Assembly: GCA_043797125.1 (NCBI GenBank)
Contig: JAZDPX010000038.1
Coordinates: 68,071-132,070, forward strand
Direction of reading: 5' to 3'
Length of the DNA: 64,000 bases
DNA from: Candidatus Omnitrophota bacterium
GTDB taxonomy: Bacteria; Omnitrophota; Gorgyraeia; JABMRG01; JAFGKX01
In this document: one piece after another, positions 1 to 63,864 of the stretch
How the letters are laid out: every line of letters begins with the position of its first letter
How positions within the stretch are numbered: the first letter of the stretch is position 1
Made by a program: the position numbers and the translations under genes
Notes under the pieces: generated by a model
The model's input: the letters and a program-made list of their open reading frames with translations, nothing else
What the model was told of the DNA's origin: nothing
The model's database searches: none

Positions 1-1300
1 TTGAGTTATTGCGTCACCTTCCAGGCCCAGCCTCTCTGCTTCTTTTTGGGCTTTTTCTTCACCATCTTCAAGAGATTTAATTAAAAGCTTGGCTTGAGAA
101 CCGCCGGTTATTTTAAATTTACCGTTTTCATCTTTCGCTACATAACCCTTTTCAATTTCTACGCGAATTTTTTCAATAAGCTTAATAGGGCGTGTGCTGT
201 CTTCTGAATGAGAATAAACCGAACCGCAAACATCGAATACAATGACACCGTTAGTGCCGTCTCCGGGGGCAATATAATACTCACCCGTAGGAATGTTGGC
301 GTAAACCTGGTCCTTAAGATCGCCTACTTCTTTAACGCCATGCTTGTTTTTAATATCAACCCTAATGTCTGTCCCGTTGGCAGTTGTAATATGAAGAAAC
401 GAGCCCTCTTCAAACAGGCTGTGTATCTTATCCGCTGCCTGGCGCATCTTTACATAATCAGGATTCGCTGTTTGCAGATATATTTCACAAGTCATCCTGG
501 GGCTGTTTACAGCGCTGAATAACGCTTTTTTATGTGAAGCGCTGCGCATTGCCTGAGCCGTTTTCATTGTATTATATATATTATCATGCCCTTTGTTATC
601 CGGTATACCAATAAGCCCGAGGTCTTCTTTGGTAAACGCGAAAACATAAGAAGCCTCATCCGTTAAAACAGCTTTATCTATAAGCTTGGATATAACAGGC
701 TCGGCTTTATCATTATATTTTTTTACAGGCTGGATTATCAAAATAGGCTTTGCTCCTTTTTCGAAAAGCTGTCGGTAATTTGAAATCCCGATATGCAGGC
801 CGTCCTGAAAAGGATTGGTGATAAGAAAAACGTTCTCGCCCCCTTCTATCTTAAAGACATCTTTTACGACTGCGGCTGTGGCATCTTCCATTCCGGGAGG
901 CGAGGCTGCCATTTTTAAGCCTTCGAAGTTTGCTTCTTTTTTACCTTTGTCCCTTAAATCTACACAAACACGTGTGTCGTCTTTAAGCGTTGTAGCTAAA
1001 AATTCCTGTGATTTATCTGTCGCGACTACTATCGTTGCCTCTGCTCCTTTAGCAGTCGCCAAATCATAAGCAGCCATTGCCTGTTCTAAAATTTGCGTAT
1101 CTGCCTGGGCAAGTATAATTACTTTTAAGCCCGGCTCTATGTTCTTTAATTTGTCAAACTCCTTATGTTTCCTTAATGCTTCTTCTGCGCCCTTTAAATT
1201 AACAAAATCTGAAAAAAGGGTTTTACTAAAAGGGTCGATCTTGAGCAGTTCTTTACCTAAGTCTTCTATTTTCTTTTGGACCTCCGGTTACAGAGTCCAT
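1..1300 (-). CDS. M29-family aminopeptidase (AmpS/PepS-like), partial: C-terminus lies beyond window start; start region irregular
   Basis: Minus-strand frame open from ~1270 down to position 1 with no stop. Translation contains ...ILAQADTQILEQAMAAYDLATAKGAEATIVV... and ...NIPTGEYYIAPGDGTNGVIVFDVCGSVYSH..., which resemble the conserved N-terminal and central blocks of AmpS-type M29 aminopeptidases (recalled from memory, not searched). The only ATG (1300-1298) is in a frame offset by 1 nt from the homologous frame. Confidence 0.45.
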
Positions 1301-2469
1301 TCAGGGGTAAAATACTGCCTTATTTTATCTAATCCTTCGGTATTGTTTCCTGACAAAAACATCTCGCCATAGGCTTTAAGGCGCCTGTTGATTAAATCCT
1401 CAAAGTCTCTGAAATAGGCCGCGAATTCCCTTATGAGCAGGTCTTCAACCTCAAAGTAATAACAAGAAAAAGATAATATGTTTTTAATAAATTCTTTATC
1501 TTCATCTTCGTCACTAAGACTTTTCCATAAAGCTTGCACAGCCTTCCTGTAATCTTCATCTGTAAAATAGATAGCGTGGTTTAGCTCATGTTCGCGTACG
1601 AAGCGCGGTTCATATTGCGTTGTGCTTATAACCGCGGCATCGCCATTGGCTTTATATGCTCCATTTTCGTAAATAAGATATTTGGATGCCAACAGCTCAT
1701 CCCTGATTCTTATCTCCATCATATTTAATACAATGCTTTGTTCAGCCTCGGTGAAAAACCTCGCTATATCTTTTAATGTATAATCATGCCCGCCAAAACC
1801 TGTCCATTTACGTTGACTTATTGTCTTTGACAGCTCTTCATCCGAATCAACCGGGCCAGGTTTAATCTCCACAAAGATTGCCAGCCTATCAAGTGCCAGG
1901 CCCTGTGTGAGCCTGTCGGCGAATATAAAATATAATATAGGTTTATTTTTGTATTGGGTAACCAAATAAGGTATGTCTTGGTCTAATTTTATTTTCTCTG
2001 TCTCGTCAAGGGAGTTAAAACTAATTACTTTATCATAGCGGATTTGAGGCAGGTATTGCAAAAGTGTCGATTTTAATTTGCCGAGTTGTATATCTCTAGC
2101 TTCTAAATATTCAAAAAAACCTTCTTTTTCAATCATCCTCCTGGTCTTGCCAACGTCGGTTGTGGTATATACAATCCATTCGTTATCCAGCTCTTCTATC
2201 TGCATAAATTTTTCTATTGCCTTGATAATCTCCTGCTTTTGTGAGGGTGTTAAATCGCGATATACAGACAGCAGGTTTTGGCATGCCTGATAATATTTTT
2301 CGTGCGCAGTATCCCTCGGAAGGCCCCAATCTTTTACGTTGTCCAGATTCAAAAATGGAAGGAATTCTCTGTAGATAAAATCCTTCGTTGCCGCCATCGG
2401 CCGCAAACAAAGCGCCTGATTTGGCAGCATCAATATAATCGCTATTATTATTGCTACTATACTTTTCAT
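1288..2469 (-). CDS. secreted hypothetical protein with HExxH (zinc-metalloprotease-like) motif and N-terminal signal peptide
   Basis: 393-aa ORF. Hydrophobic N-terminus MKSIVAIIIAIILMLPNQALC followed by LRPMA. HELNH motif (REHELNHAIYF). GGAG SD at 2470-2476. Confidence 0.55.
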   Translation of the reverse strand: MKSIVAIIIAIILMLPNQALCLRPMAATKDFIYREFLPFLNLDNVKDWGLPRDTAHEKYYQACQNLLSVYRDLTPSQKQEIIKAIEKFMQIEELDNEWIVYTTTDVGKTRRMIEKEGFFEYLEARDIQLGKLKSTLLQYLPQIRYDKVISFNSLDETEKIKLDQDIPYLVTQYKNKPILYFIFADRLTQGLALDRLAIFVEIKPGPVDSDEELSKTISQRKWTGFGGHDYTLKDIARFFTEAEQSIVLNMMEIRIRDELLASKYLIYENGAYKANGDAAVISTTQYEPRFVREHELNHAIYFTDEDYRKAVQALWKSLSDEDEDKEFIKNILSFSCYYFEVEDLLIREFAAYFRDFEDLINRRLKAYGEMFLSGNNTEGLDKIRQYFTPEWTL

Positions 2470-12102: not shown

Positions 12103-12585
12103 CTATCTGGCTATTAGTATAAAATACGTAAATGCTACGGTCAAAGTAGTAAAAAGGAGAAAAAAATACAAAAAAACTTTTGGTTTCTTGCGCAGCCTGT
12201 CAATATGTCTTTCTATCATCTGTTGTTGGGCATTGCCTATTTTTTCATATTCAACACCGAAAAAATAAGTATCTGAATCAGGTTCAGAAACCTTGCTCAA
12301 CCATTTAACCATGGCTATGGAATCGACAGGCACAGCGTCAGCAGGTATGCTGATTGCAAGCTTAAGCCTTGTTTTATTAGGAATAATCTCCAGAAAAATA
12401 TCTTCTTTCCTAATCTTGCTTTCAATTGCCATGCCGCCTTTAGCTACGTCTTGCGTGACACCGGTTAAAACAGCGCCTTGCGCGCGCCCGGTTTCATCAA
12501 CATGCTGAAACTTGACAAAAAATGCCTGGTGCTGTCTCTTGTGTCTACGCAGCTCCTGTTTTTGTGTTTGTACTAGTGTAGGCAT
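12103..12585 (-). CDS. PilZ-like c-di-GMP-binding domain protein with C-terminal TM segment (tentative)
   Basis: RRHKR (RxxxR) followed ~25 aa later by DVAKGG (D-x-S/A-x-G-G-like), spacing typical of PilZ. Hydrophobic C-terminus. Confidence 0.4.
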   Translation of the reverse strand: MPTLVQTQKQELRRHKRQHQAFFVKFQHVDETGRAQGAVLTGVTQDVAKGGMAIESKIRKEDIFLEIIPNKTRLKLAISIPADAVPVDSIAMVKWLSKVSEPDSDTYFFGVEYEKIGNAQQQMIERHIDRLRKKPKVFLYFFLLFTTLTVAFTYFILIAR

Positions 12586-12849: not shown

Positions 12850-12888
12850 CCATAAGTGCTCAAAACGCTAATGGTAGCGGCGAGTGGA
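12850..12888. repeat. 39-bp direct repeat, proximal copy overlapping tRNA-Met 3' end
   Basis: See 12667-12705. 17 nt of the tRNA 3' end plus 22 nt flank are duplicated 183 bp away. Confidence 0.6.
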
Positions 12889-12949
12889 CTTGAACCACTG
12901 ACACCCCGGGTATGAGCCGAGTGCTCTAAACCAACTGAGCTACGCCGCC
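12872..12949 (-). tRNA. tRNA-Met (anticodon CAU; elongator-type, could alternatively be tRNA-Ile2)
   Basis: RC GGCGGCGTAGCTCAGTTGGTTTAGAGCACTCGGCTCATACCCGGGGTGTCAGTGGTTCAAGTCCACTCGCCGCTACCA. Anticodon loop CTCATAC. G1-C72 pair and no GGG/CCC anticodon stem, so not initiator. Confidence 0.8.
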
Positions 12950-13371
12950 TCGAAATTTTCTACAAATTTTTCTGCCTGTTTTATATATTCTTTGTAACCT
13001 CTAATCGCTAAGGCTACTGCCCTATATACCTTTTCGTCATCTATATCCATATATTCGTGGACTAATATATTTCTCATTCCAGCAGAGCCCTTAAGCTTAT
13101 CAGCCAGTTTTCTTGAAATTAAGCCTGCTTCTGCGGCTTTTATAAACGAGATACTATAATCTTCCGGGGGCCTGTTACCGGTTTCAACCACTACGTGATT
13201 ATTTACATCCGTAGCGCATTCAACAATTAACTGGATAAGCCGCTCCGTAGAAGATTTCAGATAAAAATCTTTTTTGTACTCTTTTAAGCTTTTTTTAGAA
13301 ATGGGTTTCAATTTCTCGAGATACATATTTAAGCGCGACAACTTTCTTCTTATAAGGTCTATGTCTATCAT
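12940..13371 (-). CDS. hepT: HEPN-domain toxin HepT (DUF86)
   Basis: 143 aa. Rx4HxY motif (MRNILVHEY) near C-terminus. Immediately downstream of the cognate nucleotidyltransferase. Last 3 codons overlap the tRNA-Met 5' end. Confidence 0.7.
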   Translation of the reverse strand: MIDIDLIRRKLSRLNMYLEKLKPISKKSLKEYKKDFYLKSSTERLIQLIVECATDVNNHVVVETGNRPPEDYSISFIKAAEAGLISRKLADKLKGSAGMRNILVHEYMDIDDEKVYRAVALAIRGYKEYIKQAEKFVENFEAA

Positions 13372-13374
13372 ATG

Positions 13375-13776
13375 CTATTCCTTCTTTTTTATCGCTAATT
13401 TAAGATATTTTTTCTCTAATAATCTAAATTTTTTCGTATCTATATATCTTGACATTGCGCCAATTTTAAATTTATTAAACAAGCCCTTTGTCTTTTCATA
13501 TAAAGGAACTCCGTTTATGGCAACGTGATATGTAATCATTGCCTCTGCGCCGTTTAAAAATACCGGGTCAAATTTGTCTCCAAAAACCGAGGAAAAATCA
13601 TTCATTATATCAAAATATTTTTTTTTGATGATGCCTGGCTCGCCTAAAAATCCTATATCAATATCGCTGTTGGAATTAGCGCAATCTCTGGCGTATGAGC
13701 CGTGCAAAATCCCCAAAGACAATTTGTATTTTTTGCAAAGTTTATTAAAATTTTTGTTATTGTAAGCGAGCATCAT
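13375..13776 (-). CDS. mntA: minimal nucleotidyltransferase antitoxin MntA
   Basis: GSYARDcansnSDIDIGF = GSxxRG...SDIDL MNT signature. 133 aa. Upstream of and coupled to hepT. Confidence 0.7.
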   Translation of the reverse strand: MMLAYNNKNFNKLCKKYKLSLGILHGSYARDCANSNSDIDIGFLGEPGIIKKKYFDIMNDFSSVFGDKFDPVFLNGAEAMITYHVAINGVPLYEKTKGLFNKFKIGAMSRYIDTKKFRLLEKKYLKLAIKKKE

Positions 13777-13867: not shown

Positions 13868-13899
13868 AGCAAAAAGTAGGGGCGCCATTTATGGCGCCC
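13868..13899 (-). terminator. rho-independent terminator of the giant-protein operon
   Basis: Perfect GC stem GGGCGCCAT..ATGGCGCCC (13880-13899) followed on the minus strand by CTACTTTTTGC. Confidence 0.55.
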
Positions 13900-13952: not shown

Positions 13953-16451
13953 TTACGCGCAAGCTCCTATGCTGTCTACGTATTTTATATCAGGAGCCTT
14001 AAGCGCTGCGTCATCAAAGTCCGTGACTATCGGATTGCCCGACTTTGGCTGATTGCCGTTTGCGTAAAATGGGCCAATCTGCTTTTTTTGCGCGAACGGG
14101 CTGTCTTCTAGTTTCACCTCTCTGCTTTTTTCTCCGGCGATGTTAAAAACAACCCTTTCATGAACAAAACTCTTTTCCATATAGAAAAATTTTCCATCTT
14201 CGCTGAATTCAAAGGACGTAACATTGCCAAAAATCCCCCTGAACATTTTTGGCAAGCCGGCATTTTTCATGTCAAGCAAAGTCACCTGCGGAATCATGTT
14301 CGTATAAGATTTAAAAGCTAAAAATCGCCTATCAGGGCTTATTTTATAATCGCTAATAAGATCGAATGTTTGCGCGACCTCGCCTGTTTCAAGATTACGA
14401 ACTATGAGCTGGTTATTCAAATTTATTATGCTCAAAAATTTGCTGTCAAATGTTGTGAAAAAACCGTTTGTGGCATCAATATTTTTTAATATATGCTTTT
14501 TGGGTCTTCTAGAGGCAAGATTATTTGCAAATAGCTGATTATGGTAATCCGTAGTTATTAAATAATTGGCACTGGTCAGCGCCCATTGATCGTGGGTTTT
14601 AAGCTCGGCTATATGCTTATTGCTGGGGTTTTCCAGGTCGTAAACATATAATAACGGAAACGGGCCCATTGACTTTACGGCAAATTGGGCGTCTTCGCTG
14701 AATACTAAATCATGGCAAAAATCATACTCTGTTTTAATTAACAGACCGTATTCCGAATCCAATATATACGCATAACTGTTCGCTAAAATGTTGTTTTTAG
14801 GCAGTATCGCGATGTGCCCCGCCTTGCTCGTTACTATTTTTCCGATATAGTCGCGGGTTATGCCGAGATATTCAAGCGCATAATCAGGGATATCTTCGAT
14901 GGTGATTTTCGGGATTTTGGCAGCTTTATCAGCTTTTTTGAATTCAACCCATCTTTTATTTATAAGGTCATATGCCCTTTTAACGCCTTTTTTATCTGTA
15001 AAATAGCATCTTTTGCTGGTAGGCCCGAATTCAAAACCGCCCGCTGCGTTTATTAAATCCTCTATAGGAGCGCTTGGATTTGAAACATCATATAAGGACG
15101 CTGTACCGTGGTTATCTCTTAAAGCGATATATTTGCAATCGGGGCTGAATTTTACCCCGCCAAAGGCATTTTTATTTTTTAACACAATCTCATCATTTGG
15201 GTTAAAGATAGATGTCAATCCGAAAAAAGTGGTTACAATGCTAAATTTGTTAGGGCCTTTCTCATAATAGCTTATGTCGGACGCATTTATGCCAAGTTTT
15301 TGCGCAAAGCATATCTTTGCCGTTATATTATCGTCTGGAACAAGAATTTCTTTCTCCGGCACAAGAAGAAAAGTCTTTTCGACGCCGTCCACGCCCGTAA
15401 CATATATCTCGGCTGAGTTATCGCTGAATTTAAAACCGCCTTGTGCGTCCTGGTTTTTAATTATACGCTTGCCTGTTTCAAGATTACATATCGTAATTTC
15501 AGAGTGCCTGTTCATTAAGAGAATAAATTTATTATCAGGGCTGTATTCAATATGCCAGGCAATGCCCTTGGTGTTGTCTTTTATTATTACCTCTCCTGTT
15601 TGCGCATCGATAACCTTAAGCCTGAAAAATCTGTCTTTTTTAACAATATATTTTAAATCAGGGCTAAGGCTGAAATGGCTGGCATCACCCCATTCCGCCT
15701 TTCTTGCAAGTGCTACGGTGCTGCCATTTAATGTTAACAAATACAAAAATTGTTTATCAGTCATCGCGTCTTTGGCAATAACAGCAGCGTTGTCCTTGTT
15801 AATAGTAATCTTGATATCCTTATCTTTGTCTATATCAAAATACTTAAGCGCAAGCAGCCTGATATTTCCTTCGTTGATTTTGTAATTATGAACATTAGTT
15901 TTTAGTTTTACAAATTCCAACCTATCGCCTGCAACAAGCCTTAGAGTCAGCTCTTTACCGTCTAGATCCGTAGCTTGAATTGTTTTATCGGAATTAAACT
16001 TAAAACCGTTCGCAGCATCGATGCCGCTTTTTAAGAGTTTTACATCCTCTTTACTATAAAAAATGGCCATGGTATCCCATGGAGGTGAGGTTACTTCTCT
16101 TTCAGCCAATTTCCATAAAGCCGCATTCCAATAAAAATCTATAATTGCCGCATAATTTCCGTCCGGGCTTAACTCAATTGCGCGGCAAGGATTCCCATCC
16201 TCGCTTTTTACAATAACGTTACCATGTGAATTTAATATTGTTCCTATGCCGAATTCATCTATTACAGCCTTGTAGCCCAAAGAGTTTATTTTTATGCCAT
16301 CAATCACCTCATTATCCTTGGTTACAGCAAGGCTTTGCGCTCTTAAGGCAGATTCGCTGACGTTTTGCTGGGGCAGACCGTAAGAAACATTTGTCGCTAA
16401 AAAGAAAAATATAATAAAAATCGTTATTATTTTTCTCATGTTTACGCCCAT
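13953..16451 (-). CDS. secreted PD40/TolB-like beta-propeller repeat protein (832 aa)
   Basis: Signal peptide. Repeated (F/Y/L)SPD(G/C/N/R)(K/N)(Y/F)(I/L) blades (SPDGNYAAI, YSPDNKFILL, FSPDCKYIAL, ISPDRRFLAF). Post-signal SALRAQSL. C-terminal FYANGNQPKSGNP motif. Confidence 0.7.
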   Translation of the reverse strand: MGVNMRKIITIFIIFFFLATNVSYGLPQQNVSESALRAQSLAVTKDNEVIDGIKINSLGYKAVIDEFGIGTILNSHGNVIVKSEDGNPCRAIELSPDGNYAAIIDFYWNAALWKLAEREVTSPPWDTMAIFYSKEDVKLLKSGIDAANGFKFNSDKTIQATDLDGKELTLRLVAGDRLEFVKLKTNVHNYKINEGNIRLLALKYFDIDKDKDIKITINKDNAAVIAKDAMTDKQFLYLLTLNGSTVALARKAEWGDASHFSLSPDLKYIVKKDRFFRLKVIDAQTGEVIIKDNTKGIAWHIEYSPDNKFILLMNRHSEITICNLETGKRIIKNQDAQGGFKFSDNSAEIYVTGVDGVEKTFLLVPEKEILVPDDNITAKICFAQKLGINASDISYYEKGPNKFSIVTTFFGLTSIFNPNDEIVLKNKNAFGGVKFSPDCKYIALRDNHGTASLYDVSNPSAPIEDLINAAGGFEFGPTSKRCYFTDKKGVKRAYDLINKRWVEFKKADKAAKIPKITIEDIPDYALEYLGITRDYIGKIVTSKAGHIAILPKNNILANSYAYILDSEYGLLIKTEYDFCHDLVFSEDAQFAVKSMGPFPLLYVYDLENPSNKHIAELKTHDQWALTSANYLITTDYHNQLFANNLASRRPKKHILKNIDATNGFFTTFDSKFLSIINLNNQLIVRNLETGEVAQTFDLISDYKISPDRRFLAFKSYTNMIPQVTLLDMKNAGLPKMFRGIFGNVTSFEFSEDGKFFYMEKSFVHERVVFNIAGEKSREVKLEDSPFAQKKQIGPFYANGNQPKSGNPIVTDFDDAALKAPDIKYVDSIGACA

Positions 16452-19400
16452 TTAATCGCTTCTTCCATCAGCCTCTTAAATTCTTCCGTATCTTTAACCT
16501 TGTCAGCTTCTATTGCAGGCAACGGTAAAAATTGAATTCCTGCGCGCAAATCTGTTTCTATTGAACCTACGCTGATGGGTAGGTTACCAAACAGGTCGTG
16601 GACATTAAAAAGCTGGCCTTCTTCCCTGACAGTTGGTATAAAGAAACGAACCTGCTTCGCATTAGCTAACTTGGACAGGGTATTTTTCGTTGTTTCATCG
16701 ATTTTATCAGCCGGCATAGGATTTAAAAACATAAGCAATAAAGAGCGTTCTGAAACGGATTTTTCAGTTTCGTAGAAATGCGCGGCAACCATCAAATCAT
16801 ATAATTTTTGTGATGCCTCGGCGGGTTTTTCTATTTGTGAAACTCCTTCCAACCGTGTTGTAAAAAGATTGGGTATGTTCATCCTGTCTATTATATCTAT
16901 CTTTTTATCTATAATCCTTTCCTCTGTCAGGGCATCTTTAAAATCCTTTGGCATTATATCTTTAGGCAAGGCGCTGTCAACAGCAACAACAAACCTGAAC
17001 AAAGACGTTTGCGAATTCTCAAGCTTTAAGCCCTTAACACTCTCGGCAAATTCCTTTAACCCGGGATTTAACAAGGCGTATGTATCAGGCATTGTTATAA
17101 CTATCTGATTTTTGAAATCAAAACGCATATCCTTCAGAGCCCGCATTATGTCAATAGGCGTTTCCGGCTTAAGCTTTGCTGAAATATTCATAGCTTGCGA
17201 TAACGCCTCTTTTAGTTTGTTCTCCGAATCTTTTCCTCCCGGCAAAGGCTCATCCTCATCCGTCTTCGGGTTTCCGCTGGCGTAGTGGACATATCCTTTT
17301 TGTGGCGCTTCAGTCACTTCGCCGGTATTTATATCAAGTATCCTTAGCGGCATTTCTACGCCGTCGGAGGTTTTACCAGCAAGGATTGTAACTTTTAGTT
17401 TATCGGGGTCATAGGCGGTATGAGAAGGTATTGGTATTTTGCTTTTTACAGGGTTACCCGGATTTTTATCGAGATGATAAAGGTCAAAATGCGTGGCCAT
17501 TAGAGGGGGCTTTTCGCTGGATCTAAACACAATCAGCTGATTTTTTGGCGTCAGCCAATAACAAACATCGTTGCCGTAGGCAATGCCTAAAGATACAGGC
17601 TCTTGTCCGGGATTTCTTAAATCACATACACGCAAAGGTTTGTCAAATTTAAGCCTGTTCGCGCCATTTGTCCACACGATGAAGCTTCCGTCGTCGCTAA
17701 TCTTCAAATTGGATATGCTTCCGTTGACGCATCCGCTTTCCGAATATGTAATTCTTTTAATTACTTTATAATCCGAATCATATACGATTATCGGATGTAA
17801 TATCCCCTTTTTTGTATACAGGACTATTGTTTTATTGTTCTTGCTTACAGCTAGGTTAATATTTGCTTTAGGTATGCCTTTGAAGTCTTGTATAAATACG
17901 CATGCTGGCATTTTATCAAACATCTGTTCTTTTGCATCATTCAGCGCGTTGCCGTTGGCGTAATTGGGTTGGGTGCCAACTTCAGCATTTCCGATGAGGT
18001 CTATAATCGTAGTTTCCCCGCTTGCATCAACAGCTTGAACCTGGGTGTCGTTATTTATAAAACTAATTCCTCTCGTCGCGTCTAAGTTTTCTTTTATTGG
18101 GTTATCCGGGTCTGCAATTCTATAAACAGATGCTGTATTATCTTTGTTCAGTATAATTAAATATTTCTCATCACTACTGACTTCGCTTGATAATTTTTCT
18201 TTCTTATGTTTATCCAATATTATTTGCAACCTGCGCCCAAAACTCAATGGCAGGTTGCCTTCTCCTTTATCCGTATCCGCATTGCCGTTGGCGTAGTGGG
18301 ACTGGTTTGAGGCAGAGGTATTGTTTAATTTAGTTAGGTCTACATCTGTTCTTTGTCTGTTGTATACATAGGTTAAGGTGTTTTTAGATTCAAAAGAAAA
18401 GCATTCCGTATCATGTGTAAATATCGGTTCGGATGGGTTTGGGCTTTTCATATCATATACTCTGCATCCTATATGATTATAATCCAGATTGTAATCTATC
18501 TCATACGCTATAGCAAAATATCTTTTATTGTGCTTGTTGAAAATAATATTTTTTGATTTTCCTTGAATTTGAGCTACTTCACTCTTAAGTTCTGTATCAT
18601 ATATAACTGTTACGCCTCTGGCAACACCATCTTTTTCCGGAATAAATGCCCAGAGATATTCAGCTTCGGGGCTGAAACCAAAGCAGGTTGCGCCTTGAAA
18701 CACTTTAATAGGTTTTTCTGCATGTGTCTTGTCAGAAAGATCGAGCAAAATCACCCTTCGTTTCTTGGGATCCTTGCTGTCTAACCAAACAGCAAGATAT
18801 CTGTTATTGCTGCTTTTCTCATAACCAGAATGATGTTCAATCTTCATTTTTGAAATTGGCTTATTTGGTTGTTTTAGGTTATACAAAGATATCGTAATTG
18901 TTGTAATTCCCATAAAAACAAGGGCAATATTATTACCTTCTAACGGCATGATGTAATCGTCGCGGCCAATTGGTTTATTTAATATAAGTTCCTCTTGTGG
19001 ATTAAAAACAAATGCCTTATATCCCCAGAAGGTATGGGTAACCAAAACAACTCTGTACCCTTCTTCATTTACTATATCGTTTCCATCTTTATCTGTTAAA
19101 ATAATATCTTTTACAAATACATTATGTTCACCAAGCAGAGAGAGCATCTTTGCTGTGACATTTTTTGGGGTGACAGAAAGGCTAAGGTTCTCTTCACCAC
19201 GCGTTGTTTTTATTGTTAAGCTTCTACTATCAGGCGCAAAAGCGCAGTCTTTTATTTCATTATTCTCTCTATCGCCTTCAGGAATCTGGTATGTCGCTAT
19301 AGGCTCATTTGGTTTTTTGTCCCATAAATCATAAATCTCTGCTGAGAACTCATTATTTATAGCTAGAACAAATCTGTAATTGTTGCTTATTTCTACGCCG

Positions 19401-22400
19401 CAAGCGGTATCTATATCCTTGATTTTAATTTTTTCCGTATACAAATTTATTATATCAGTTAGCGATAGAGCATTTCCTTTAGCGTCGACGAATTCTCTGT
19501 CTGCGACTAAATGTGCGCCATCCGGCGTAACCCGATATCCCTCATTAGCGTTTATACCCGTCATTACAGGTTCTGCTGGGTCTGTAGAGTCTATATTATA
19601 CACGGTCAGCATCATGTCTTTATCTCTAACTATTAACCGGTTGCTTTTAGTCAGCAGTCCGTCTATGATGTCATCTGTTTTTATGCCGAAAGATTCTAAT
19701 TTTTTAAATACTGCATTTTCTTTATCCGTATCCGCATTGCCGTTGGTGTATTGGACTTCGCGTGACTCTGAAGAGGGAACTTCTTGGTGCTTATTTGTTA
19801 ATGTAGAAAGGTTGATTTTTTCTACCTTGCCATTGATTTCGCAGCTAAATGTGTCCTTTGACTTAAAAGCACAATTTATGGCTGATGCGGCAAATATCGG
19901 CTCATAGGGCTTGTCGCCTTTCAAATCATATACCAATTTATTAGGAGTGCCGCCATATTCTGCCCAAATATATCTCTCTTCTTTGTCGTATGGGTTATAA
20001 TGAATTATCTGTAGGTTCTTAGGAATTACTACACGGGTGTTATCGCGCAAATTATAAATAGTTGTGCTCGTTTGGGTCCATTGGGGATATGTACTTCGCA
20101 ATCCGAGATAATTTGCTTTAGGGCTGAAATAAAAATTGTTGGCTTTTTCAAAAGTTACAATTGGGTACTTTACAGAATCTCCTTCCTTGTGCAAATCAAG
20201 CACTGAAACTGTGCCGCGCTTTTCAAAGGCAATATACCTGTCGTCAAAAGTTTGCTCAAAATCATACAGGCCTGTTAGTTTGATTTTAAAAACAGACTTT
20301 TTAAGGTTCTTGAGGTTATATAACAACAGGTTGCAGTTATCCCCTATGGTCGGTGTCAGGAAAGCAATATTATTGCCTTCAGCAGGCAAAAGGCAGGTAT
20401 TTTTATATACCTTCTTGCGCATAATGAGGTTGTCTTGCGGATCAAAGACGTATGCCCAGCTCGAATTGGAAAACGCTACTTTGTAACCCGCATTGTTCGT
20501 TTTGATTTTCCTGCTTAAATCAATTATAGGAAAATCCTCTGCCCTAAGAGAATATTCCTTAAGCTGTAATAGCATTTTAACTGTTAAGTATTTTGGGCAC
20601 ACAGGCAAAGCAAGAGTATCCTTCCTTTTGCCTATCTTTATAGAAAATTCTCTGCTGTCATTACTGAAGCCAAAATCGCTTACTATTGGGTCGGCTTTAC
20701 TGTTTAGGCTTAACTGGAGATTGTAAACCTTTATCGGCTTGTCAGGCGTATCGCTAAGCAAATCATATAGCTCAACGCACCAGGGGCTTGGTTTAGCTGC
20801 GAAAAACTGGCTATTCTTGCTAATTTTTTCGCCGCAAGCTGTGCTTATGCCTTCAATTACTTTTTCGCCTGTTAATACATTCACTATAGTAACTATATTA
20901 TTAAAAGCTACATAGGGCGGATCAGCTTCAGCGACAACATGCAAAGAATCCGGGGTAAGCCAAAATTTGCTGTTGGCATTTATATTTATTGCAATCGGCT
21001 TATTGGGTTTTTTAGCTTTTAAATTATAGATAGAAATCTGTCCGTTCCCACCCCTCACTACGAGCCTGTCTGAGTTGGTCAATTTCCAGTCCTCTGCTTT
21101 AATGTTCTCAAAAGTTAGCTCATCTAACTCAAGCGAGGCATTAAGATCGAATATTTTTAGCTTAGATGCGGCGTCAGGGTCAAGCGTATTCTTTTCTTGC
21201 CAGGCGGCGTAATTATTTGTAATCTGCAGGCTGTCTTTCAAGTACCCATACGATCTATGAAGCATAGGATAACTATTGTGTAAATAGGGCCCTAAAATAT
21301 ATAAAGTGAAAGATCTGTTTTTCTGCTTTGTAATTATTATGGCTTGTTTTTTATCATTAAGGAATATAGTCTTTATAATCTCTTTTTTCTCTATGCCTTT
21401 TGCCGCTAAATCGAGTTTCTTAAATGTATTTTCATCCGTAGGCGCATTGTCGTTGGCGTAAGGGCTTTTGCGAATATTGATAGTTTTGTTAGTTTCTGTT
21501 ATCTCAAAAAACTCCGCGTTTATCAACAATATTATTTCTTTTACCTGTTTCTGAAGCTCTTTATTTCCTATAAGATTTGGCACGCACTGGCCTATTAATG
21601 TAAGCCTGTGCTCCTGATCGGAAAAACTATCTTTATCGTTTATATGATTAAAGAACTCTTCTATAACGAGCTCTGCCTTTTTATTGTCCTGCCTCAAAAC
21701 CTCTCTTGTGCTGGCATAAAGCAGGTTATACCATAACAATATGGCGGAGTTAATTAAAGAGTAGCGCGCGCCTGTCTGGCCTACCTGCGCGTGGTCAGAA
21801 ACGGTAATCTGATATTTTATTTTAAATTCTGCGCCATCTTGCGCCTTCAGAGCCAAGTGCCCGCCTTTTTTCCCTTGCCAATTCAGCTCATGCATAGCCA
21901 TAAAATACGCCAGGCCGCGGGCAACGCTTAAGTTTCTTGTCGTGCCATCGCCGAATTTCACCGTAAGCACGACGTCGTTTTTCAATATGTCGCTGTAATT
22001 ATTTACAAAATCCTTATGCACGCGAAAGGCAAACTTTTCTGTATCGTTTTTTTCGTTGTATTCATCCTTGCCTTGCGGCAGCAGCAGGACGGCAATGTTT
22101 ATCCTGTCCTCTGCGCCTATGTATTTATCGCTTCCTATCTCTACAACTATGTCCTTATCTTTAATAAAGCCGGATTTTCCCAAAGCCCTGTTTATAATGC
22201 TTTCCAGTGAACCGTCATCTAAAGGAATGCCTTTAACAATATTTACTTCTGCGCCGGGAGGCGCAAGAGTGAAATCCTCGATTAATGCTTTGCTTGCGGC
22301 TGTTTGCGACAAGCTTTGCGCTCTTAGCGCTGACGCGCTCGCAAAGTCGTGCGCCAAGGCAATAGAACTATTTGTCGCTAAAAACAAAATAGCAGTGCAT

Positions 22401-22447
22401 AAAGACACTGCTTTCACAAAAATGGTTTTTGCTGTTTTCATCTCCAA
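16442..22447 (-). CDS. giant secreted multi-module beta-propeller repeat protein (2001 aa)
   Basis: Signal peptide plus SALRAQSL. Many (V/I)Y(N/D)L...P..(K/E)PI blade-like repeats and PD40-like FAPDSRSL/FSPEAEYL. Five Y-x-N-G-N-A-x-T-D motifs. Unique ~280-aa C-terminal domain. 10-nt overlap with the downstream 832-aa gene. Confidence 0.7.
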   Translation of the reverse strand: MEMKTAKTIFVKAVSLCTAILFLATNSSIALAHDFASASALRAQSLSQTAASKALIEDFTLAPPGAEVNIVKGIPLDDGSLESIINRALGKSGFIKDKDIVVEIGSDKYIGAEDRINIAVLLLPQGKDEYNEKNDTEKFAFRVHKDFVNNYSDILKNDVVLTVKFGDGTTRNLSVARGLAYFMAMHELNWQGKKGGHLALKAQDGAEFKIKYQITVSDHAQVGQTGARYSLINSAILLWYNLLYASTREVLRQDNKKAELVIEEFFNHINDKDSFSDQEHRLTLIGQCVPNLIGNKELQKQVKEIILLINAEFFEITETNKTINIRKSPYANDNAPTDENTFKKLDLAAKGIEKKEIIKTIFLNDKKQAIIITKQKNRSFTLYILGPYLHNSYPMLHRSYGYLKDSLQITNNYAAWQEKNTLDPDAASKLKIFDLNASLELDELTFENIKAEDWKLTNSDRLVVRGGNGQISIYNLKAKKPNKPIAININANSKFWLTPDSLHVVAEADPPYVAFNNIVTIVNVLTGEKVIEGISTACGEKISKNSQFFAAKPSPWCVELYDLLSDTPDKPIKVYNLQLSLNSKADPIVSDFGFSNDSREFSIKIGKRKDTLALPVCPKYLTVKMLLQLKEYSLRAEDFPIIDLSRKIKTNNAGYKVAFSNSSWAYVFDPQDNLIMRKKVYKNTCLLPAEGNNIAFLTPTIGDNCNLLLYNLKNLKKSVFKIKLTGLYDFEQTFDDRYIAFEKRGTVSVLDLHKEGDSVKYPIVTFEKANNFYFSPKANYLGLRSTYPQWTQTSTTIYNLRDNTRVVIPKNLQIIHYNPYDKEERYIWAEYGGTPNKLVYDLKGDKPYEPIFAASAINCAFKSKDTFSCEINGKVEKINLSTLTNKHQEVPSSESREVQYTNGNADTDKENAVFKKLESFGIKTDDIIDGLLTKSNRLIVRDKDMMLTVYNIDSTDPAEPVMTGINANEGYRVTPDGAHLVADREFVDAKGNALSLTDIINLYTEKIKIKDIDTACGVEISNNYRFVLAINNEFSAEIYDLWDKKPNEPIATYQIPEGDRENNEIKDCAFAPDSRSLTIKTTRGEENLSLSVTPKNVTAKMLSLLGEHNVFVKDIILTDKDGNDIVNEEGYRVVLVTHTFWGYKAFVFNPQEELILNKPIGRDDYIMPLEGNNIALVFMGITTITISLYNLKQPNKPISKMKIEHHSGYEKSSNNRYLAVWLDSKDPKKRRVILLDLSDKTHAEKPIKVFQGATCFGFSPEAEYLWAFIPEKDGVARGVTVIYDTELKSEVAQIQGKSKNIIFNKHNKRYFAIAYEIDYNLDYNHIGCRVYDMKSPNPSEPIFTHDTECFSFESKNTLTYVYNRQRTDVDLTKLNNTSASNQSHYANGNADTDKGEGNLPLSFGRRLQIILDKHKKEKLSSEVSSDEKYLIILNKDNTASVYRIADPDNPIKENLDATRGISFINNDTQVQAVDASGETTIIDLIGNAEVGTQPNYANGNALNDAKEQMFDKMPACVFIQDFKGIPKANINLAVSKNNKTIVLYTKKGILHPIIVYDSDYKVIKRITYSESGCVNGSISNLKISDDGSFIVWTNGANRLKFDKPLRVCDLRNPGQEPVSLGIAYGNDVCYWLTPKNQLIVFRSSEKPPLMATHFDLYHLDKNPGNPVKSKIPIPSHTAYDPDKLKVTILAGKTSDGVEMPLRILDINTGEVTEAPQKGYVHYASGNPKTDEDEPLPGGKDSENKLKEALSQAMNISAKLKPETPIDIMRALKDMRFDFKNQIVITMPDTYALLNPGLKEFAESVKGLKLENSQTSLFRFVVAVDSALPKDIMPKDFKDALTEERIIDKKIDIIDRMNIPNLFTTRLEGVSQIEKPAEASQKLYDLMVAAHFYETEKSVSERSLLLMFLNPMPADKIDETTKNTLSKLANAKQVRFFIPTVREEGQLFNVHDLFGNLPISVGSIETDLRAGIQFLPLPAIEADKVKDTEEFKRLMEEAIKWA

Positions 22448-24918: not shown

Positions 24919-24954
24919 TTAGCTGCTCCTTTCATAAAAATAAATTTATTTATT

Positions 24955-47099: not shown

Positions 47100-48093
47100 T
47101 GTTTAAATTCGGCTCTGCTTCAAGCGAATAATCGCTGCGCAGGCCTTCCTTATATAACCTATATCCCGCGGCCGCTACCATGGCGGCGTTATCCGTGCCA
47201 AGCCCGGTTTCGGGAAATAACACTTGTATACAATCACCTTTTGCTCTATCAATAAACATTTGCTGCAATGTTCTGTTAACGCTCACGCCTCCGCCAACCA
47301 GAAGCTGGGCCGCGTTTGTTCCCTTGGCCGCGTTAACAGCCTTATCCACTATGACATAAAAAATTGCCTTTTGAAAACTGGCGCATATATCATTTATATT
47401 GACTTGTTTTTTTCCCTGGCTTTGCTTTCTTATATAATAAAGTAAAGCGGTCTTTACGCCGCTAAAACTAAAATCAAAAGAGCCTTTTTCAAGAAATGCC
47501 ATTGGAAAATCCACAGCATCGGGATTTCCGCTTTTTGCCTTTTCTTCTACTATTGGTCCGCCGGGATAACCAAGCCCTAATATCTTCGCAGCCTTGTCAA
47601 ATGCCTCTCCCGCGGCGTCGTCGCGCGTCTGGCCAAGAAGCGTAAGGTCATTATAATTTTTAATAAGCGCTAAAGTTGTGTGGCCTCCTGAAACTACCAG
47701 ACCTATGCATGGAAATTTAATATTCCCCTTTAGCATGCAGGAATATATGTGCGCGTACAGATGATTTACGCCGATAAGCGGAATTTTTAAAGCCAGGCCC
47801 AATGCCTTAGCAGATGATATCCCTATCAGCAAGGCCCCTGCTAATCCAGGGCCGTAAGTTACAGCTATAAGCTCGATTTTTGAAAGATCCGCCGATGCTG
47901 CCTCAAGAGCGTCTTTGATAACATAATCGATGCACTCCAGGTGATGCCTGCACGCTATCTCCGGCACTACGCCTCCGTACTGCTTGTGCAGCTGGAGGCT
48001 AGAGGCAATTTTGTTCGACAGTATTTCTACGCCATCCTTAACGACAGACGCGGATGTTTCATCGCAAGATGTTTCTATGCCAAGCGTTAACAT
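47059..48093 (-). CDS. tsaD: tRNA N6-adenosine threonylcarbamoyltransferase
   Basis: MLTLGIETSCDETS N-terminus, HxxH metal-site region (VNHLYAHIY), Kae1/Gcp fold. Confidence 0.9.
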   Translation of the reverse strand: MLTLGIETSCDETSASVVKDGVEILSNKIASSLQLHKQYGGVVPEIACRHHLECIDYVIKDALEAASADLSKIELIAVTYGPGLAGALLIGISSAKALGLALKIPLIGVNHLYAHIYSCMLKGNIKFPCIGLVVSGGHTTLALIKNYNDLTLLGQTRDDAAGEAFDKAAKILGLGYPGGPIVEEKAKSGNPDAVDFPMAFLEKGSFDFSFSGVKTALLYYIRKQSQGKKQVNINDICASFQKAIFYVIVDKAVNAAKGTNAAQLLVGGGVSVNRTLQQMFIDRAKGDCIQVLFPETGLGTDNAAMVAAAGYRLYKEGLRSDYSLEAEPNLNIGDGSHPSVRNVP

Positions 48094-60950: not shown

Positions 60951-62777
60951 TTACGCTGCCGCATCTATTTCACGTAGCGTATTATAAACATGTATTTTTG
61001 TATTGTGTTCTGGAATAACATCAATAGGTTTTGGAGCAGCCACAATTTTCACCTTTGCATTAAATAGGCTAATTGCGTAGCCGATACGAATATTGTGCAA
61101 GAAAACACGACAATCATCTTTAAAAGTTAATTGACTAAGTCTTTTGCCTTCTAATATTCTGTGTGTGTGATTATCATCTTCGCTGCTACCGGTTTCAAAA
61201 ACTGTTACATTGCCTTCTTCATCCTCAGCAAATATTGCCCATCTTAATTCGGGCTTTATCAGCGAATCATTCTCTTCAGCAATTCCATCCAAACAATATC
61301 TTTTCTTTTCTGGGTCGTAGCCTATTACAAAATTAGTGTTGAGCTCAGGCAAGTAAAAAAGTGTGGGATAATCCGGCATTTCATCTTGTTTTTTGCCTAC
61401 AGCATAATTAGGTAAGTTCTTTGCCTGAGATCTTATGGCGGTTTTGATCTCATGTTCTAAAGAAAGGGAAGAAACTTTTGCCAACTGAGTTAATGTAAAA
61501 ATAATCGTCGATTCTGTTTTTAACTTAAAATTATTTTTTTTGGCTATTTTTGCTATATAATTCAATATGGGTAACTCGAATCCCCTAACCCCCGAATACT
61601 CCCCAAGGTCGAGCCTTATTGATAATGCCTTATCTGTTTCATTTATCTCTATAAGCACGGGGATGACCTGCTCCGGCTCATACTCCTTTGACTCCATGGC
61701 GATAGTTAATTCCAAAAGCGACTCAATCCGCTTTCCACAGAAATAAACGTCATATCCTATCAACCCTTCTTTAACATCAGGATATTCTTGCTTTCTAAGC
61801 TCGAACTCTTCTCCTTTTTTGGTGCTAAGTTTTACTGCCTCACTAAAATCTGCAATAATTTTTTCTATAGTCAGTATCTCCCAAAATCGCCTGTAAATAT
61901 TTTGCACTCCTAAATCGAGAATAACTTTATCCTTACTTTTTCCGCCAAGTCCGCCTCTTAATATATCGTTTAACTTATCCTTAAAAGCTGACAACTCCAT
62001 GCCCGGCTCGTATTGGACTGCCTTGAAACGCAGATTTAAAGCCCTTTTTACGTTCTCCTGCCTGTCATCGATAAACACGGACTCTTGCGCTTTTGCGCCC
62101 GCTTCAACAAGCGCTTTTGCGTATATTTTCTCATCGGGCTTGTTCGCTTTGGCCTCGCAGGAAAAGGTGCAGCTATCAGCCAACTCAAATATCTCTTTAA
62201 AAGCGACTTTTATATAATCGAGCGAGTCTTTATCCAGGTTTGAAATAATCCCTATTTTGTATCCCGCTTCTTTTAATTGCCTCATAATTTTTACCATTGG
62301 CCGGTTCATCCAGAATATCTTCGCAACATGTTCGTAAAATACATCATAACTAATAAGATCTTTTCGGTTCTCTATTCCTAAATCCTTAAGGCTTTGCTCG
62401 TAGAACTTTTTAAAGGTGACTTTACCTGCCAGATATTGCCAAAATAATCCCTCCTGGTGATATAAAACTTCATATAACCCAAACAGAATATCGTAAACCT
62501 CCTTCTCTGTTTTTTTGCAGCGTTCGGCAATCTTCTTTGATTGCGAAGTATGCATTCTATCAAAAAACAACAGCACGTTTCCAACATCAAAAAATACCGT
62601 TTTTATCTTAGACTCTGATGCAGGCATAAATGTATATTTGCTGACCTGTCGCGCCATGGGACGCAAGGCATAGCCTTGTTGTGGCATCGCCAATGTAATC
62701 GCTATTGTTATCGTTATTAGCTTTTTCATATTTTTACTACGCGCTGGCCTCCACGGGGACAGGTTCCCGAATAGCAT
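60951..62777 (-). CDS. secreted two-domain protein: N-terminal HAD-superfamily hydrolase + C-terminal domain paralogous to neighbouring 375-aa protein
   Basis: Signal peptide (probable start MKKLITITIAITLAMPQQGYA, then LRPMA). HAD motif I FFDVGNVLL, motif II IGIISN, motif IV FIDDRQENV. C-terminal half aligns with the 62737-63864 product (RLDLGEYSGVRGFELPILNY vs RLDLGQYRWWAGLEFPILAY). Confidence 0.6.
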   Translation of the reverse strand: MLFGNLSPWRPARSKNMKKLITITIAITLAMPQQGYALRPMARQVSKYTFMPASESKIKTVFFDVGNVLLFFDRMHTSQSKKIAERCKKTEKEVYDILFGLYEVLYHQEGLFWQYLAGKVTFKKFYEQSLKDLGIENRKDLISYDVFYEHVAKIFWMNRPMVKIMRQLKEAGYKIGIISNLDKDSLDYIKVAFKEIFELADSCTFSCEAKANKPDEKIYAKALVEAGAKAQESVFIDDRQENVKRALNLRFKAVQYEPGMELSAFKDKLNDILRGGLGGKSKDKVILDLGVQNIYRRFWEILTIEKIIADFSEAVKLSTKKGEEFELRKQEYPDVKEGLIGYDVYFCGKRIESLLELTIAMESKEYEPEQVIPVLIEINETDKALSIRLDLGEYSGVRGFELPILNYIAKIAKKNNFKLKTESTIIFTLTQLAKVSSLSLEHEIKTAIRSQAKNLPNYAVGKKQDEMPDYPTLFYLPELNTNFVIGYDPEKKRYCLDGIAEENDSLIKPELRWAIFAEDEEGNVTVFETGSSEDDNHTHRILEGKRLSQLTFKDDCRVFLHNIRIGYAISLFNAKVKIVAAPKPIDVIPEHNTKIHVYNTLREIDAAA

Positions 62778-63864
62778 AGGGACAGGTTAGCGAAGCATCT
62801 GGTAAACGGTACGGTTTTCCGCTGAACGAAACTATTTTTGTTGCAGGTTTAGGTTTTACCAGCGCTTCTATACTCGTATTGTCTATCTCCAGCGCATACC
62901 CGGTAAATTCGCCGTTTATAGAAAATGTCCCGTTTGTGCTAAATTTAAAAGCCCTAAGATATTTCCCCCTAAATACGTGGCGTTGATAACCGGTTATATC
63001 TTTTCCGCCGACATCATGCACAACGATATTTCCATACTCATCTTCAATAAAAGTCATCCATGACGTATTATACCCCGAAACGTTTAGTGTGTAATATACA
63101 TTTAGCTCCTTATTATATCCCAACAATGTCGCGCTTTTTGCGGTTGTTACAAAAACAAGCTTTGCGCTTTTTAGGTTGTTGTGCCCCATGCCTCTCTTAA
63201 TCAGCCTAAGATTATCTGTATTATGTTGGGCATTTGATGTTATCTTTTCTTTAATTGCCCCATCTAAATCAAAGTCTGAAACCAGCGAAAGATAGCGCAA
63301 GGTCTGTATCTGCGTTCCGCGTGTGTGCAACCGCAGTTTATGCTGATATGCTTTATCCGCAAAATAAGCAAGTATCGGAAATTCCAGGCCAGCCCACCAC
63401 CTGTACTGGCCCAAATCCAGCCTTTCTATTGTCAACTTTGAGGCACCTATGTTTATTGTTATATATACAGGCCCGGGGTGTACGGGCTTTCCAGATACGA
63501 TAAAAAGCCCTTTGGTTTTCTGCCAGCAGATAGATCTTATTATCTCGTCATTGAAATAAATATCGTAACCAACCTGATTATTATTAAAAAATGAGTCATT
63601 CTGCTTTTTAAGGATTATTTTCCGGTTGTTCTCTGTAAACAAAGTTATTTCTCGCGGAAAAGTCGCGATGATGTCTTCCGGGAGCACCAGTTTGTAGGGT
63701 TCGATGACGCGTGTATCAAAATCATGCCCAGGAAAAACTCCCTCCGACATTGGCCGGAGTGTATTGCAGTGTAAACTGCGTGTGAAATCTAAAGCATAGG
63801 ACGAAAGCTGTACTCCGAACAAGACTGACATAGTCATATTTATAATAATAACTATTTTTTTCAT
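62737..63864 (-). CDS. secreted hypothetical protein, paralog of the C-terminal domain of the upstream HAD-fusion protein
   Basis: Signal peptide, LRPM motif. Shared blocks FIEDEYGNIVVHDVGG / FAEDEEGNVTVFETGS and KPKPATKIV / APKPIDVI. Confidence 0.55.
   Translation of the reverse strand: MKKIVIIINMTMSVLFGVQLSSYALDFTRSLHCNTLRPMSEGVFPGHDFDTRVIEPYKLVLPEDIIATFPREITLFTENNRKIILKKQNDSFFNNNQVGYDIYFNDEIIRSICWQKTKGLFIVSGKPVHPGPVYITINIGASKLTIERLDLGQYRWWAGLEFPILAYFADKAYQHKLRLHTRGTQIQTLRYLSLVSDFDLDGAIKEKITSNAQHNTDNLRLIKRGMGHNNLKSAKLVFVTTAKSATLLGYNKELNVYYTLNVSGYNTSWMTFIEDEYGNIVVHDVGGKDITGYQRHVFRGKYLRAFKFSTNGTFSINGEFTGYALEIDNTSIEALVKPKPATKIVSFSGKPYRLPDASLTCPYAIREPVPVEASA

Follow-up and report, generated by a model that had tools for sequence, protein, structure and literature searches.

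The window analysed here, a stretch of 64,000 nt of the 138,343-bp contig JAZDPX010000038.1, is an ordinary chromosomal region of a Candidatus Omnitrophota metagenome-assembled genome (MAG). Its genes lie nearly all on the minus strand and include those for FtsH, TilS, PolA, Rho, RF1, GatAB, SurA-type chaperones, a Wood-Ljungdahl methyl-branch cluster and an H+-pyrophosphatase. Five other genes of the window encode proteins in which a short motif, LRPM or LRAQSL, follows an N-terminal hydrophobic segment (Table 1). This motif, the leader that precedes it and the diverse proteins that share it are the subject of the present study. The Omnitrophota occur widely, have hardly any cultured members and are believed to number predators or parasites among them.

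In the six-frame translation of the window LRPM occurs three times and LRAQSL twice, every copy being in frame, at most 45 residues from a start codon and located after a hydrophobic segment. All five sites are at the positions, on the minus strand, that were named in a preliminary description of the window; the (L)PQQ that was there ascribed to both large proteins is present in the 832-aa protein and missing from the 2001-aa one. The bare 12-nt codon pattern for LRPM, counted in any frame, is not enriched in the window (4 observed, 1.9 expected), so that the significance of the motif rests on its frame and position. The 11-residue pattern PxQxxxLRPMA (32 nt), shared by the HExxH protein and the HAD-phosphatase fusion protein, was observed twice against 0.00 expected. 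Neither SurA, the PrsA-like lipoprotein, CtpA nor the TPR protein, exported housekeeping proteins of the window that were checked, contains the motif.

When compared by BLASTP, the HAD fusion and the HExxH protein have only residues 1–26 in common (54% identity), while the HAD fusion and the 375-aa protein, which is 100% identical to V2A72_07485 of the same MAG, share the C-terminal domain and not the leader. The 832-aa and 2001-aa proteins have the leader (47% over 38 aa) and weak repeats in common. The pattern of sharing therefore defines three unrelated cargo families among the five proteins. Four of the genes are arranged in two operon-like pairs (375-aa/HAD fusion and 2001-aa/832-aa), each preceded by a promoter-like site; the fifth is the HExxH gene. 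The HExxH protein is 100% identical to V2A72_07200 of the MAG; its only homologues, P0002 and P0003 (40–41% identity), both lack the leader. Its AlphaFold2 model, based on three sequences, has a mean pLDDT of 48, and the Foldseek matches (best E=0.17) are meaningless; it is at most a possible zincin protease and, as such, a possible processing enzyme. No homologues of the 375-aa paralog were found in the protein database search.

Table 1. The five motif genes and associated features, in window coordinates.
Feature	Position	Strand	Sequence or remark
HExxH protein, 393 aa (V2A72_07200), canonical leader protein	1288..2469	-	MKSIVAIIIAIILMLPNQALC then LRPMAATKD; C-terminus ...PEWTL
HExxH protein, 21-residue leader	2407..2469	-	MKSIVAIIIAIILMLPNQALC; n-region MK, h-region, c-region PNQALC
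HExxH protein, LRPMA tag	2392..2406	-	+1 to +5 of the predicted mature protein
Terminator-like hairpin after the 832-aa gene	13880-13899		
832-aa beta-propeller-like protein	13953..16439	-	leader ...NVSYG, LPQQNVSESA, LRAQSLA
832-aa protein, C-terminal tail	13956..13970	-	...IGACA-COOH
832-aa protein, SALRAQSL motif	16329..16352	-	
2001-aa repeat protein, variant leader	16442..22441	-	...SSIALA, HDFASASA, LRAQSLS; C-terminus ...IKWA
2001-aa protein, SALRAQSL motif	22310..22333	-	
Promoter-like site, 2001-aa gene	22503-22530		
HAD-phosphatase fusion protein, 592 aa (P0005), canonical leader protein	60951..62729	-	MKKLITITIAITLAMPQQGYA then LRPMARQ
HAD fusion, C-terminal tail	60954..60968	-	...IDAAA-COOH; same type as the residues before the junction (P-side) of P0013, IDSAA-LRPMA, same genome
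HAD fusion, LRPMA tag	62652..62666	-	
HAD fusion, 21-residue leader	62667..62729	-	MKKLITITIAITLAMPQQGYA
375-aa paralog of the HAD-fusion C-terminal domain, spacer-type variant leader	62737..63864	-	...QLSSYA, LDFTRSLHCNT (11-residue spacer), LRPMSEG
375-aa paralog, C-terminal tail	62740..62754	-	...VEASA-COOH; 7 nt before the HAD-fusion start codon
375-aa paralog, LRPMS tag	63745..63759	-	
Promoter-like site upstream of the 375-aa form	63914-63941		TGGACA-16-TATAAT with TG, strong

A conserved leader on unrelated proteins

As homologues of the cargo were uninformative, the leader served as the query. Its profile, 32 residues long and built from the two canonical leaders of the window, was compared with 1.84 billion representative proteins (E≤1e-3), which resulted in 39 matches: the two window proteins, two spurious hits and 35 further proteins of 51–2389 aa. 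In all 35 the match lies at or close to the N-terminus, and in 32 it starts at residue 1 or 2; E values go down to 2e-10. The spurious hits are P0006, a tandem 'DQGVAIRPTAATS' repeat protein, and P0041, in which there is no aligned stretch. Because the profile was built from canonical leaders, the family set is biased towards the canonical form.

Across 29 leaders the length is fixed at 21 residues and the consensus reads M-K-K-[IL]-I-A-I-T-I-A-I-I-L-A-[MI]-P-Q-Q-[AG]-[LY]-[AC], followed by L-R-P-[MVIT]-[AS]; the HExxH protein leader scores 53 bits against the profile of these 29 sequences. A positively charged n-region (K26/R3 at −20, K27 at −19) precedes an h-region of about 12 residues (I/L/A/T/V/M at −18 to −7), a helix-breaking proline at −6 (28/29) and small residues at −3 (A15/G11) and −1 (A14/C14/G1). 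Positions −2 and −1 covary: L-C is found in 10 of the 11 leaders with L at −2, as opposed to Y/F-A (Fisher p=5e-4, the sequences not being independent). Codon use in the leader DNA is odd too, the arginine at +2 being encoded by CGN in 6/8 leaders (31% of arginine codons). Downstream, L occupies +1 in 28/29 leaders, R and P are invariant at +2 and +3, and [MVIT] is followed by A in 24/29. Up to −1 these features are those of Sec signals cut by signal peptidase I, and the leader is accordingly taken for a probable cleaved Sec-type signal peptide. Unlike other Sec signals, it hardly varies in sequence and keeps a fixed length among unrelated proteins and genomes, which is very unusual; it is followed by an invariant L-R-P with a basic residue at +2, and the sequence of its predicted cleavage site recurs internally and, as the P-side half, at C-termini.

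The preliminary description had noticed a short motif right after the signal peptide. LRPM does stand there, but the conserved unit is larger, consisting of the whole 21-residue signal peptide with LRPxA, and is coupled to a C-terminal tail of the form [AST][AS]A. The reservation made at that time, that the motif might be restricted to paralogs by descent, does not hold for LRPM and the leader, which recur on 35 other unrelated proteins, although it could hold for the ALRAQSL pair.

The MAG of the window contains at least five canonical members, namely the HExxH protein, the HAD fusion, P0013, P0031 and P0020. When the DNA pattern of PxQxxxLRPMA was sought in GTDB genomes, one of the 120 matches listed had a signal-peptide context, and it came from another Candidatus Omnitrophota genome, the single-amplified genome (SAG) AM-311-C11. 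A stricter leader pattern gave eight true cases among nine matches in JGI metagenomes. In viral contigs, which served as a control, none of the 26 matches to the former pattern had a signal-peptide context, and a leader-based locus search with h-region peptides as the query confirmed no leader there either. Scans against Pfam-A 2025 and NCBIfam 20.0 (E≤10) revealed no family for the leader or the junctions described below and no N-terminal domain match in leader proteins; a single leader produced three weak matches (E 0.01–0.03), all to unrelated N-terminal models.

Several other identities of the N-terminal element were considered and rejected. A lipoprotein signal with a signal peptidase II lipobox is incompatible with a cysteine that is present in only 14/29 leaders, alternates with alanine and is preceded by leucine. 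The MKK n-region lacks the RR that a Tat signal peptide would have, and a prepilin (class III) signal is at odds with a hydrophobic stretch that precedes the site and with the lack of G-F..E. An N-terminal domain of the LEPR-XLL type had no NCBIfam match, and for an RNA element the Rfam search of the window yielded two tRNAs only. The NCBI model of V2A72_07485 (337 aa) starts at the M of LRPM, whereby the signal peptide is lost; this M was rejected as the true start codon, since M is found at +4 in just 12/29 leaders. The motif thus allows gene starts to be corrected, V2A72_07485 being one example.

The leader also has variants. In a spacer type, represented by the 375-aa window protein and two genes of locus L147, T-LRP[LM][SA] stands 6–11 residues past an ordinary signal-peptidase site. 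In the 2001-aa protein LRAQSL stands 8 residues past the predicted signal-peptidase site. The P-sides of the ALRAQSL proteins (ASA/ESA) and the L-R fit the pattern, the P at +3 is replaced by A, and the scores on the leader profile are about 0–4 bits; the 832-aa protein, which has PQQ, ends in ...ACA and the 2001-aa protein in ...KWA. We therefore regard the HExxH protein and the HAD fusion as canonical, the 375-aa paralog as spacer-type and, tentatively, the two large proteins as divergent variants of the LRP family, to which they are linked by resemblance alone; what the two share may be no more than paralogous descent. A further variant, of the form x-R-P, was observed in a 2772-aa PPDK-domain protein (L162:1600-9918) whose gene adjoins the canonical leader gene P0023: it has another signal peptide, followed by SYA-YNRP, and the end ...ASQA.

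The mature parts of the leader proteins are unrelated, diverse and mostly of cytoplasm type. Pfam domains found in them include inositol monophosphatase, HMGL-like, HATPase_c with a uridine-kinase-like domain, radical SAM (with SPASM), HAD phosphatases, arrays of Fis-type helix-turn-helix (HTH) and sigma-70 region 4 domains, three DnaJ domains, phosphofructokinase (PFK), PfkB kinase, GT9 heptosyltransferase, PPDK with ATP-grasp and CoA-ligase, aromatic amino-acid lyase, URO-D and a SAM methyltransferase. Passages of two reports describe a like repertoire (HATPase_c, radical SAM, PPDK_N, HAD and methyltransferase domains) for signal-peptide-bearing long and giant proteins of the same phylum (10.1101/2023.11.21.568195; 10.64898/2026.06.07.730766). 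The window proteins, at 375–2001 aa, are not giants, and these passages contain no description of a conserved leader, LRP tag, AA tail, junction motifs or linkers. Our literature search found no paper joining Omnitrophota with polyproteins.

C-terminal tails, internal junctions and module equivalence

Most full-length leader proteins end in [AST][AS]A-COOH, for example ...IDAAA, ...INSAA, ...YAASA or ...LATAA, with no hydrophobic stretch or transmembrane helix. Among 145 complete open reading frames (ORFs) of the window and related loci, this strict tail is present in 10 of the 14 with a signal peptide and LRP and in 2 of the 131 others (Fisher p=8e-11), both of the latter being variant proteins of the window; two more of the 14 end in ...EAA or ...QAA. 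In the window the tail is found in three of 51 genes, all among the five motif proteins (3/5 vs 0/46). Tandem leader genes are common, and in these the stop of the preceding gene, after ...ASA or ...AAA, lies 7–15 nt before the next ATG, as in the paralog/HAD-fusion pair of the window. No Pfam or NCBIfam model matches the tail. In C-terminal sorting signals a motif precedes a transmembrane helix and a basic tail; a signal of this kind (LPXTG, PEP-CTERM, GlyGly-CTERM or the C-terminal domain of type IX secretion) was rejected, given the plain xAA-COOH end, the lack of a transmembrane helix and the lack of a Pfam or NCBIfam match.

The motif also recurs inside leader proteins. In 30.7 kaa (thousand residues) of such proteins, 10 of the 12 internal copies of LRP have A at −1 and a P-side of small residues ([AQS][AS]A), often with Q at −4. 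P0030 contains ...ALAASA-LRPTASA (residue 944), ...ALQASA-LRPMAAH (1769) and a terminal ...FAQSA-LRPMASAA (2382), the first of which falls between its PEP-utilizers and ATP-grasp domains. Similar junctions are present in P0037 (...IAQAA-LRPMAAI at 915 and ...FQASA-LRPMAVK at 1296) and, in the window's own genome, in P0013, where ...EAIDSAA-LRPMASKG separates a HAD/kinase half from a radical-SAM half. The C-termini of stand-alone leader proteins are the same as the P-sides of these junctions. The preliminary description had named copies at random positions as a reason to doubt the motif; internal copies do exist, but they are located at module boundaries and not at random.

The strongest single result concerns a 1323-aa protein of locus L150, residues 587–923 of which are 67% identical to residues 21–360 of the stand-alone protein P0012. 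In both proteins the alignment starts at A-LRPMASEAKIS, which is an internal junction in the L150 protein and the predicted signal-peptide cleavage site in P0012. Given this equivalence of modules and the recurrence of the boundary, the motif is a module boundary. The module of the L150 protein that is bounded by A-LRP and xxA (L150:6060-10031, residues 588–956) is, like P0012, a polytopic membrane protein with about six hydrophobic segments, so that the modules are not soluble enzymes alone.

Proposed export and processing, and competing explanations

We consider it rather probable that the LRPM sites are part of a lineage-specific Omnitrophota export leader and module-boundary motif, for which a mechanism of cleavage and tagging can be proposed. 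The leader, judging from its anatomy, would take the protein through the Sec pathway. A peptidase would then cut after the small residue, between A/C and L; the candidates are signal peptidase I and a dedicated peptidase whose recognition extends to LRP on the primed side. A/C-LRP would most likely be a cleavage site common to signal-peptide removal and polyprotein processing, and one kind of cut would both remove the leader and sever the internal junctions. Fused, tandem and single-gene versions would then all give modules with LRPxA as their first and xAA as their last residues, as the identity of the sites and the equivalence of the modules suggest. The LRP N-terminus, the AA C-terminus or both might, more speculatively, serve as tags for secretion, docking or turnover. 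A dedicated enzyme reading the primed side would explain why LRP is invariant and why no hydrophobic segment precedes the internal sites. The spacer-type variants imply that LRP is more than the primed side of a signal-peptidase site, and LRP itself may mark the protein for some later step. That unrelated cargo passes through a common sorting or processing step had been suggested in the preliminary description. This idea is strengthened by the presence of the leader on at least 35 unrelated proteins and of the motif at both the predicted signal-peptidase site and internal junctions that match stand-alone ends, although the case is incomplete.

A number of observations weigh against this mechanism, in which export and cleavage are predictions from sequence. 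The cargo needs ATP, S-adenosylmethionine, coenzyme A, iron-sulphur clusters or DNA, none of which is obviously supplied outside the cytoplasm. Signal peptidase I normally requires a preceding hydrophobic segment, which internal junctions do not have, and in E. coli a basic residue at mature position +2 is unfavourable for Sec export, so that the invariant arginine is odd for a plain Sec substrate. The HExxH protein, although canonical in its leader, ends in ...PEWTL and lacks the tail. In the spacer-type variants T precedes LRP, which is thus not always at an AxA site, and ALRAQSL was seen in one paralog pair only, no further examples having been found. The leader is tied to two named Omnitrophota genomes, the window MAG and SAG AM-311-C11, the remaining occurrences being on metagenome contigs. 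Finally, the co-occurring protease or sortase-like gene envisaged in the preliminary description was not found: around eight leader genes there is no conserved protease or secretion locus, and the neighbours are ordinary metabolic genes, with one exception that resembles a type II secretion system (T2SS).

It could alternatively be that the leader is an ordinary cleaved signal peptide, and that the ASA-LRPMA junctions and AA tails are uncleaved linkers, docking elements (e.g. for the assembly of modules) or relics of gene fusion and fission. Such an origin would agree with the fact that no cleavage products have been observed and with the absence of the hydrophobic segment that signal peptidase I needs; also, head and tail are directly adjacent in the ...QSA-LRPMASAA end of P0030, as in a single linker unit. 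We nevertheless find it unlikely, since the junctions equal the leader cleavage site both on the P-side (small −3 and −1, often Q at −4) and on the P'-side, P0012 after its signal peptide starts at the exact residue at which the internal module starts, and stand-alone proteins end exactly at the P1 alanine.

In a still less likely explanation the N-terminus would stay uncleaved as a membrane anchor, or act as a cytoplasmic pro-sequence, and keep the enzymes at the inner face of the membrane, any processing at A-LRP taking place in the cytoplasm. An h-region of about 12 residues, a proline breaker, a small −3/−1 site and an MKK n-region are characteristic of a cleaved Sec signal and not of a transmembrane anchor, and internal junctions have no hydrophobic segment at all. 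What speaks for retention in the cell is the overwhelmingly cytoplasm-type cargo (PFK, PfkB, PPDK, ATP-grasp, radical SAM, DnaJ, HTH, SAM methyltransferase, URO-D), together with the conserved arginine after the hydrophobic stretch.

The similarity could also reflect descent, or a cassette copied between genes at the DNA level by duplication, recombination or a small mobile insert, LRP having no function of its own. In its favour, codons of the h-region are strikingly alike across genes and genomes (ATA-GCG-ATA-ACA-ATA-GCG-ATT), the proline at −6 is encoded by CCA in 6/8 leaders (13% of proline codons in the window genome), and the −2/−1 pairs fall into two classes, L-C and Y/F-A. On the other hand, the DNA upstream of the leaders is not conserved, and the codons for L, R and P at +1 to +3 differ synonymously from gene to gene although the residues do not change, a sign of selection on the protein. 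As LRP moreover occurs with quite different signal peptides and at leaderless internal junctions, and goes together with a C-terminal tail that is hundreds to thousands of residues distant, copying of a cassette is a very improbable explanation. Chance co-occurrence of short motifs in five N-termini, with which only the unenriched count of bare LRPM codons (4 vs 1.9) would agree, is refuted by the in-frame N-terminal position of all copies, the two occurrences of the 11-residue pattern (0.00 expected) and the 35 database recurrences (E down to 2e-10).

If export and cleavage occur as proposed, the system would work like a Sec signal peptide combined with a processing motif comparable to PEXEL/TEXEL or to Kex2 sites. 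PEXEL and TEXEL of Apicomplexa and RxLR of oomycetes are short motifs downstream of the signal peptide on many unrelated exported proteins of host-dependent organisms. PEXEL and TEXEL are protease cleavage sites, TEXEL can be internal, and these systems act in the eukaryotic endoplasmic reticulum. In contrast to them, LRP has another sequence, abuts the predicted signal-peptidase site, pairs with a C-terminal tail and joins enzyme modules, and its delivery to other cells is only hypothetical. Fungal Kex2 repeat proteins and flavivirus polyproteins have a signal peptide followed by units that are split at a short site, and the internal sites of flaviviruses are cut by signal peptidase. LRP units differ in being heterologous enzymes, regulators and polytopic membrane modules, in having junctions without a hydrophobic segment and in that their cleavage is predicted. 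To our knowledge, there is no bacterial precedent for secreted polyprotein processing of the Kex2 or flavivirus kind. With LPXTG/sortase, PEP-CTERM/exosortase, GlyGly-CTERM/rhombosortase and SipW-type signals LRP shares the property of being a short, taxon-restricted motif on many unrelated proteins of one genome. Tail-specific proteases (Tsp/Prc/CtpA, S41) bind small non-polar C-termini such as the ...LAA of ssrA, and [AST][AS]A-COOH is of that kind; CtpA is a widespread housekeeping enzyme, with no evidence linking it to the leader system. An S41/PDZ CtpA homologue is encoded in a housekeeping context at 48093-49373 of the window. With regard to giant Omnitrophota proteins, a passage of one preprint goes no further than to speculate that they may be cut by C39 or S8 domains (West-Roberts et al. 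2023; 10.1101/2023.11.21.568195).

A more far-reaching version, which we put forward as a tentative possibility, is that Omnitrophota have a large 'exportome' of cytoplasm-type enzymes and regulators, among them glycolytic and sugar kinases, PPDK, radical SAM enzymes, DnaJ and HTH proteins, encoded as single genes, in tandem or as polyproteins, with one near-invariant Sec leader and a dedicated peptidase acting at A-LRP and perhaps at a second boundary motif, K[AS]SSAG. LRP and AA termini would then be tags for delivery out of the cell, to prey or host cells or to an energised extracytoplasmic space. If true, bacteria would have an equivalent of PEXEL-type effector export, and the giant proteins of the phylum a code for their processing. 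The LRP system would also be one of few cases among bacteria of a linear motif for export or processing carried by unrelated cargo, and likewise of a polyprotein exported by Sec; should cytoplasm-type enzymes indeed leave the cell and be processed along this route, it could be categorically new. With module starts (LRPxA), ends (xAA) and junctions all specified by a sequence code, the question of export and cutting becomes directly testable: the motif may be used to predict neo-termini in proteomes, to cut giant proteins in silico, and in phylogenetic profiling for a cognate protease or secretion system.

Genomic context and further boundary motifs

The T2SS-like exception mentioned above is found in SAG AM-311-C11 (L030:1604-7492, JBHPDT010000025.1), where an operon encodes GspG, three minor pseudopilins, GspK, a PilM-PilN fusion and PilO/GspM. 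About 600 bp downstream of it is the start of the leader gene of this SAG, whose product has a length of at least 534 aa and no Pfam domain. In the window, a PilZ-domain gene (12103-12585) is located 1.4 kb downstream of the 2001-aa/832-aa operon, past an apparent toxin-antitoxin pair and a tRNA-Met gene. Both placements match the neighbourhoods of Omnitrophota giant genes as given in passages of the published reports, with a T2SS-like locus upstream and pilZ homologues downstream (10.1101/2023.11.21.568195; 10.64898/2026.06.07.730766).

Motif genes of the window are found in stretches of lower GC content (0.39 vs 0.43) beside tRNA genes (2884-2959 and 12872-12949), tRNA-Thr being directly upstream of the HExxH gene and tRNA-Met directly downstream of the large-protein operon. 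The low GC content and the tRNA neighbours suggest accessory, island-like regions. The toxin-antitoxin pair (12940-13776), apparently of the nucleotidyltransferase/HEPN-like kind as judged by eye, is also directly downstream of this operon. Elsewhere in the window, positions 22822-35283 contain the H+-pyrophosphatase gene followed by the methyl-branch Wood-Ljungdahl-type cluster (FTHFS, FTCD_C, FolD, MetF with a MetV-like protein and a pterin-binding protein), as well as PanB/PanE.

K[AS]SSAG is a second recurrent boundary motif. It occurs seven times in P0022 (L149:10001-15325), four times in a 1644-aa protein (L147:2375-7309), three times in P0021 (L147:10001-13906) and twice in P0018 (L149:7478-9985), and is also present at L030:3-1604. 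Internal repeats resume straight after it, e.g. KASSAG-QVALFDIPRPEY and KASSAG-QKPLFDIPRPEF, and at several N-termini it stands 2–33 residues past LRPxA; it may be another linker or processing site. In the two large window proteins, blocks of beta-propeller-like repeats are separated by a linker of the form Y[AT][NS][GD]N-x-x-x-D, e.g. HYANGNADTDKGE and QYTNGNADTDKEN, at residues 328, 898, 1383, 1494 and 1720 of the 2001-aa protein and at residue 792 of the 832-aa protein. This linker may be the equivalent, in the genome of the window, of the K[AS]SSAG boundary.

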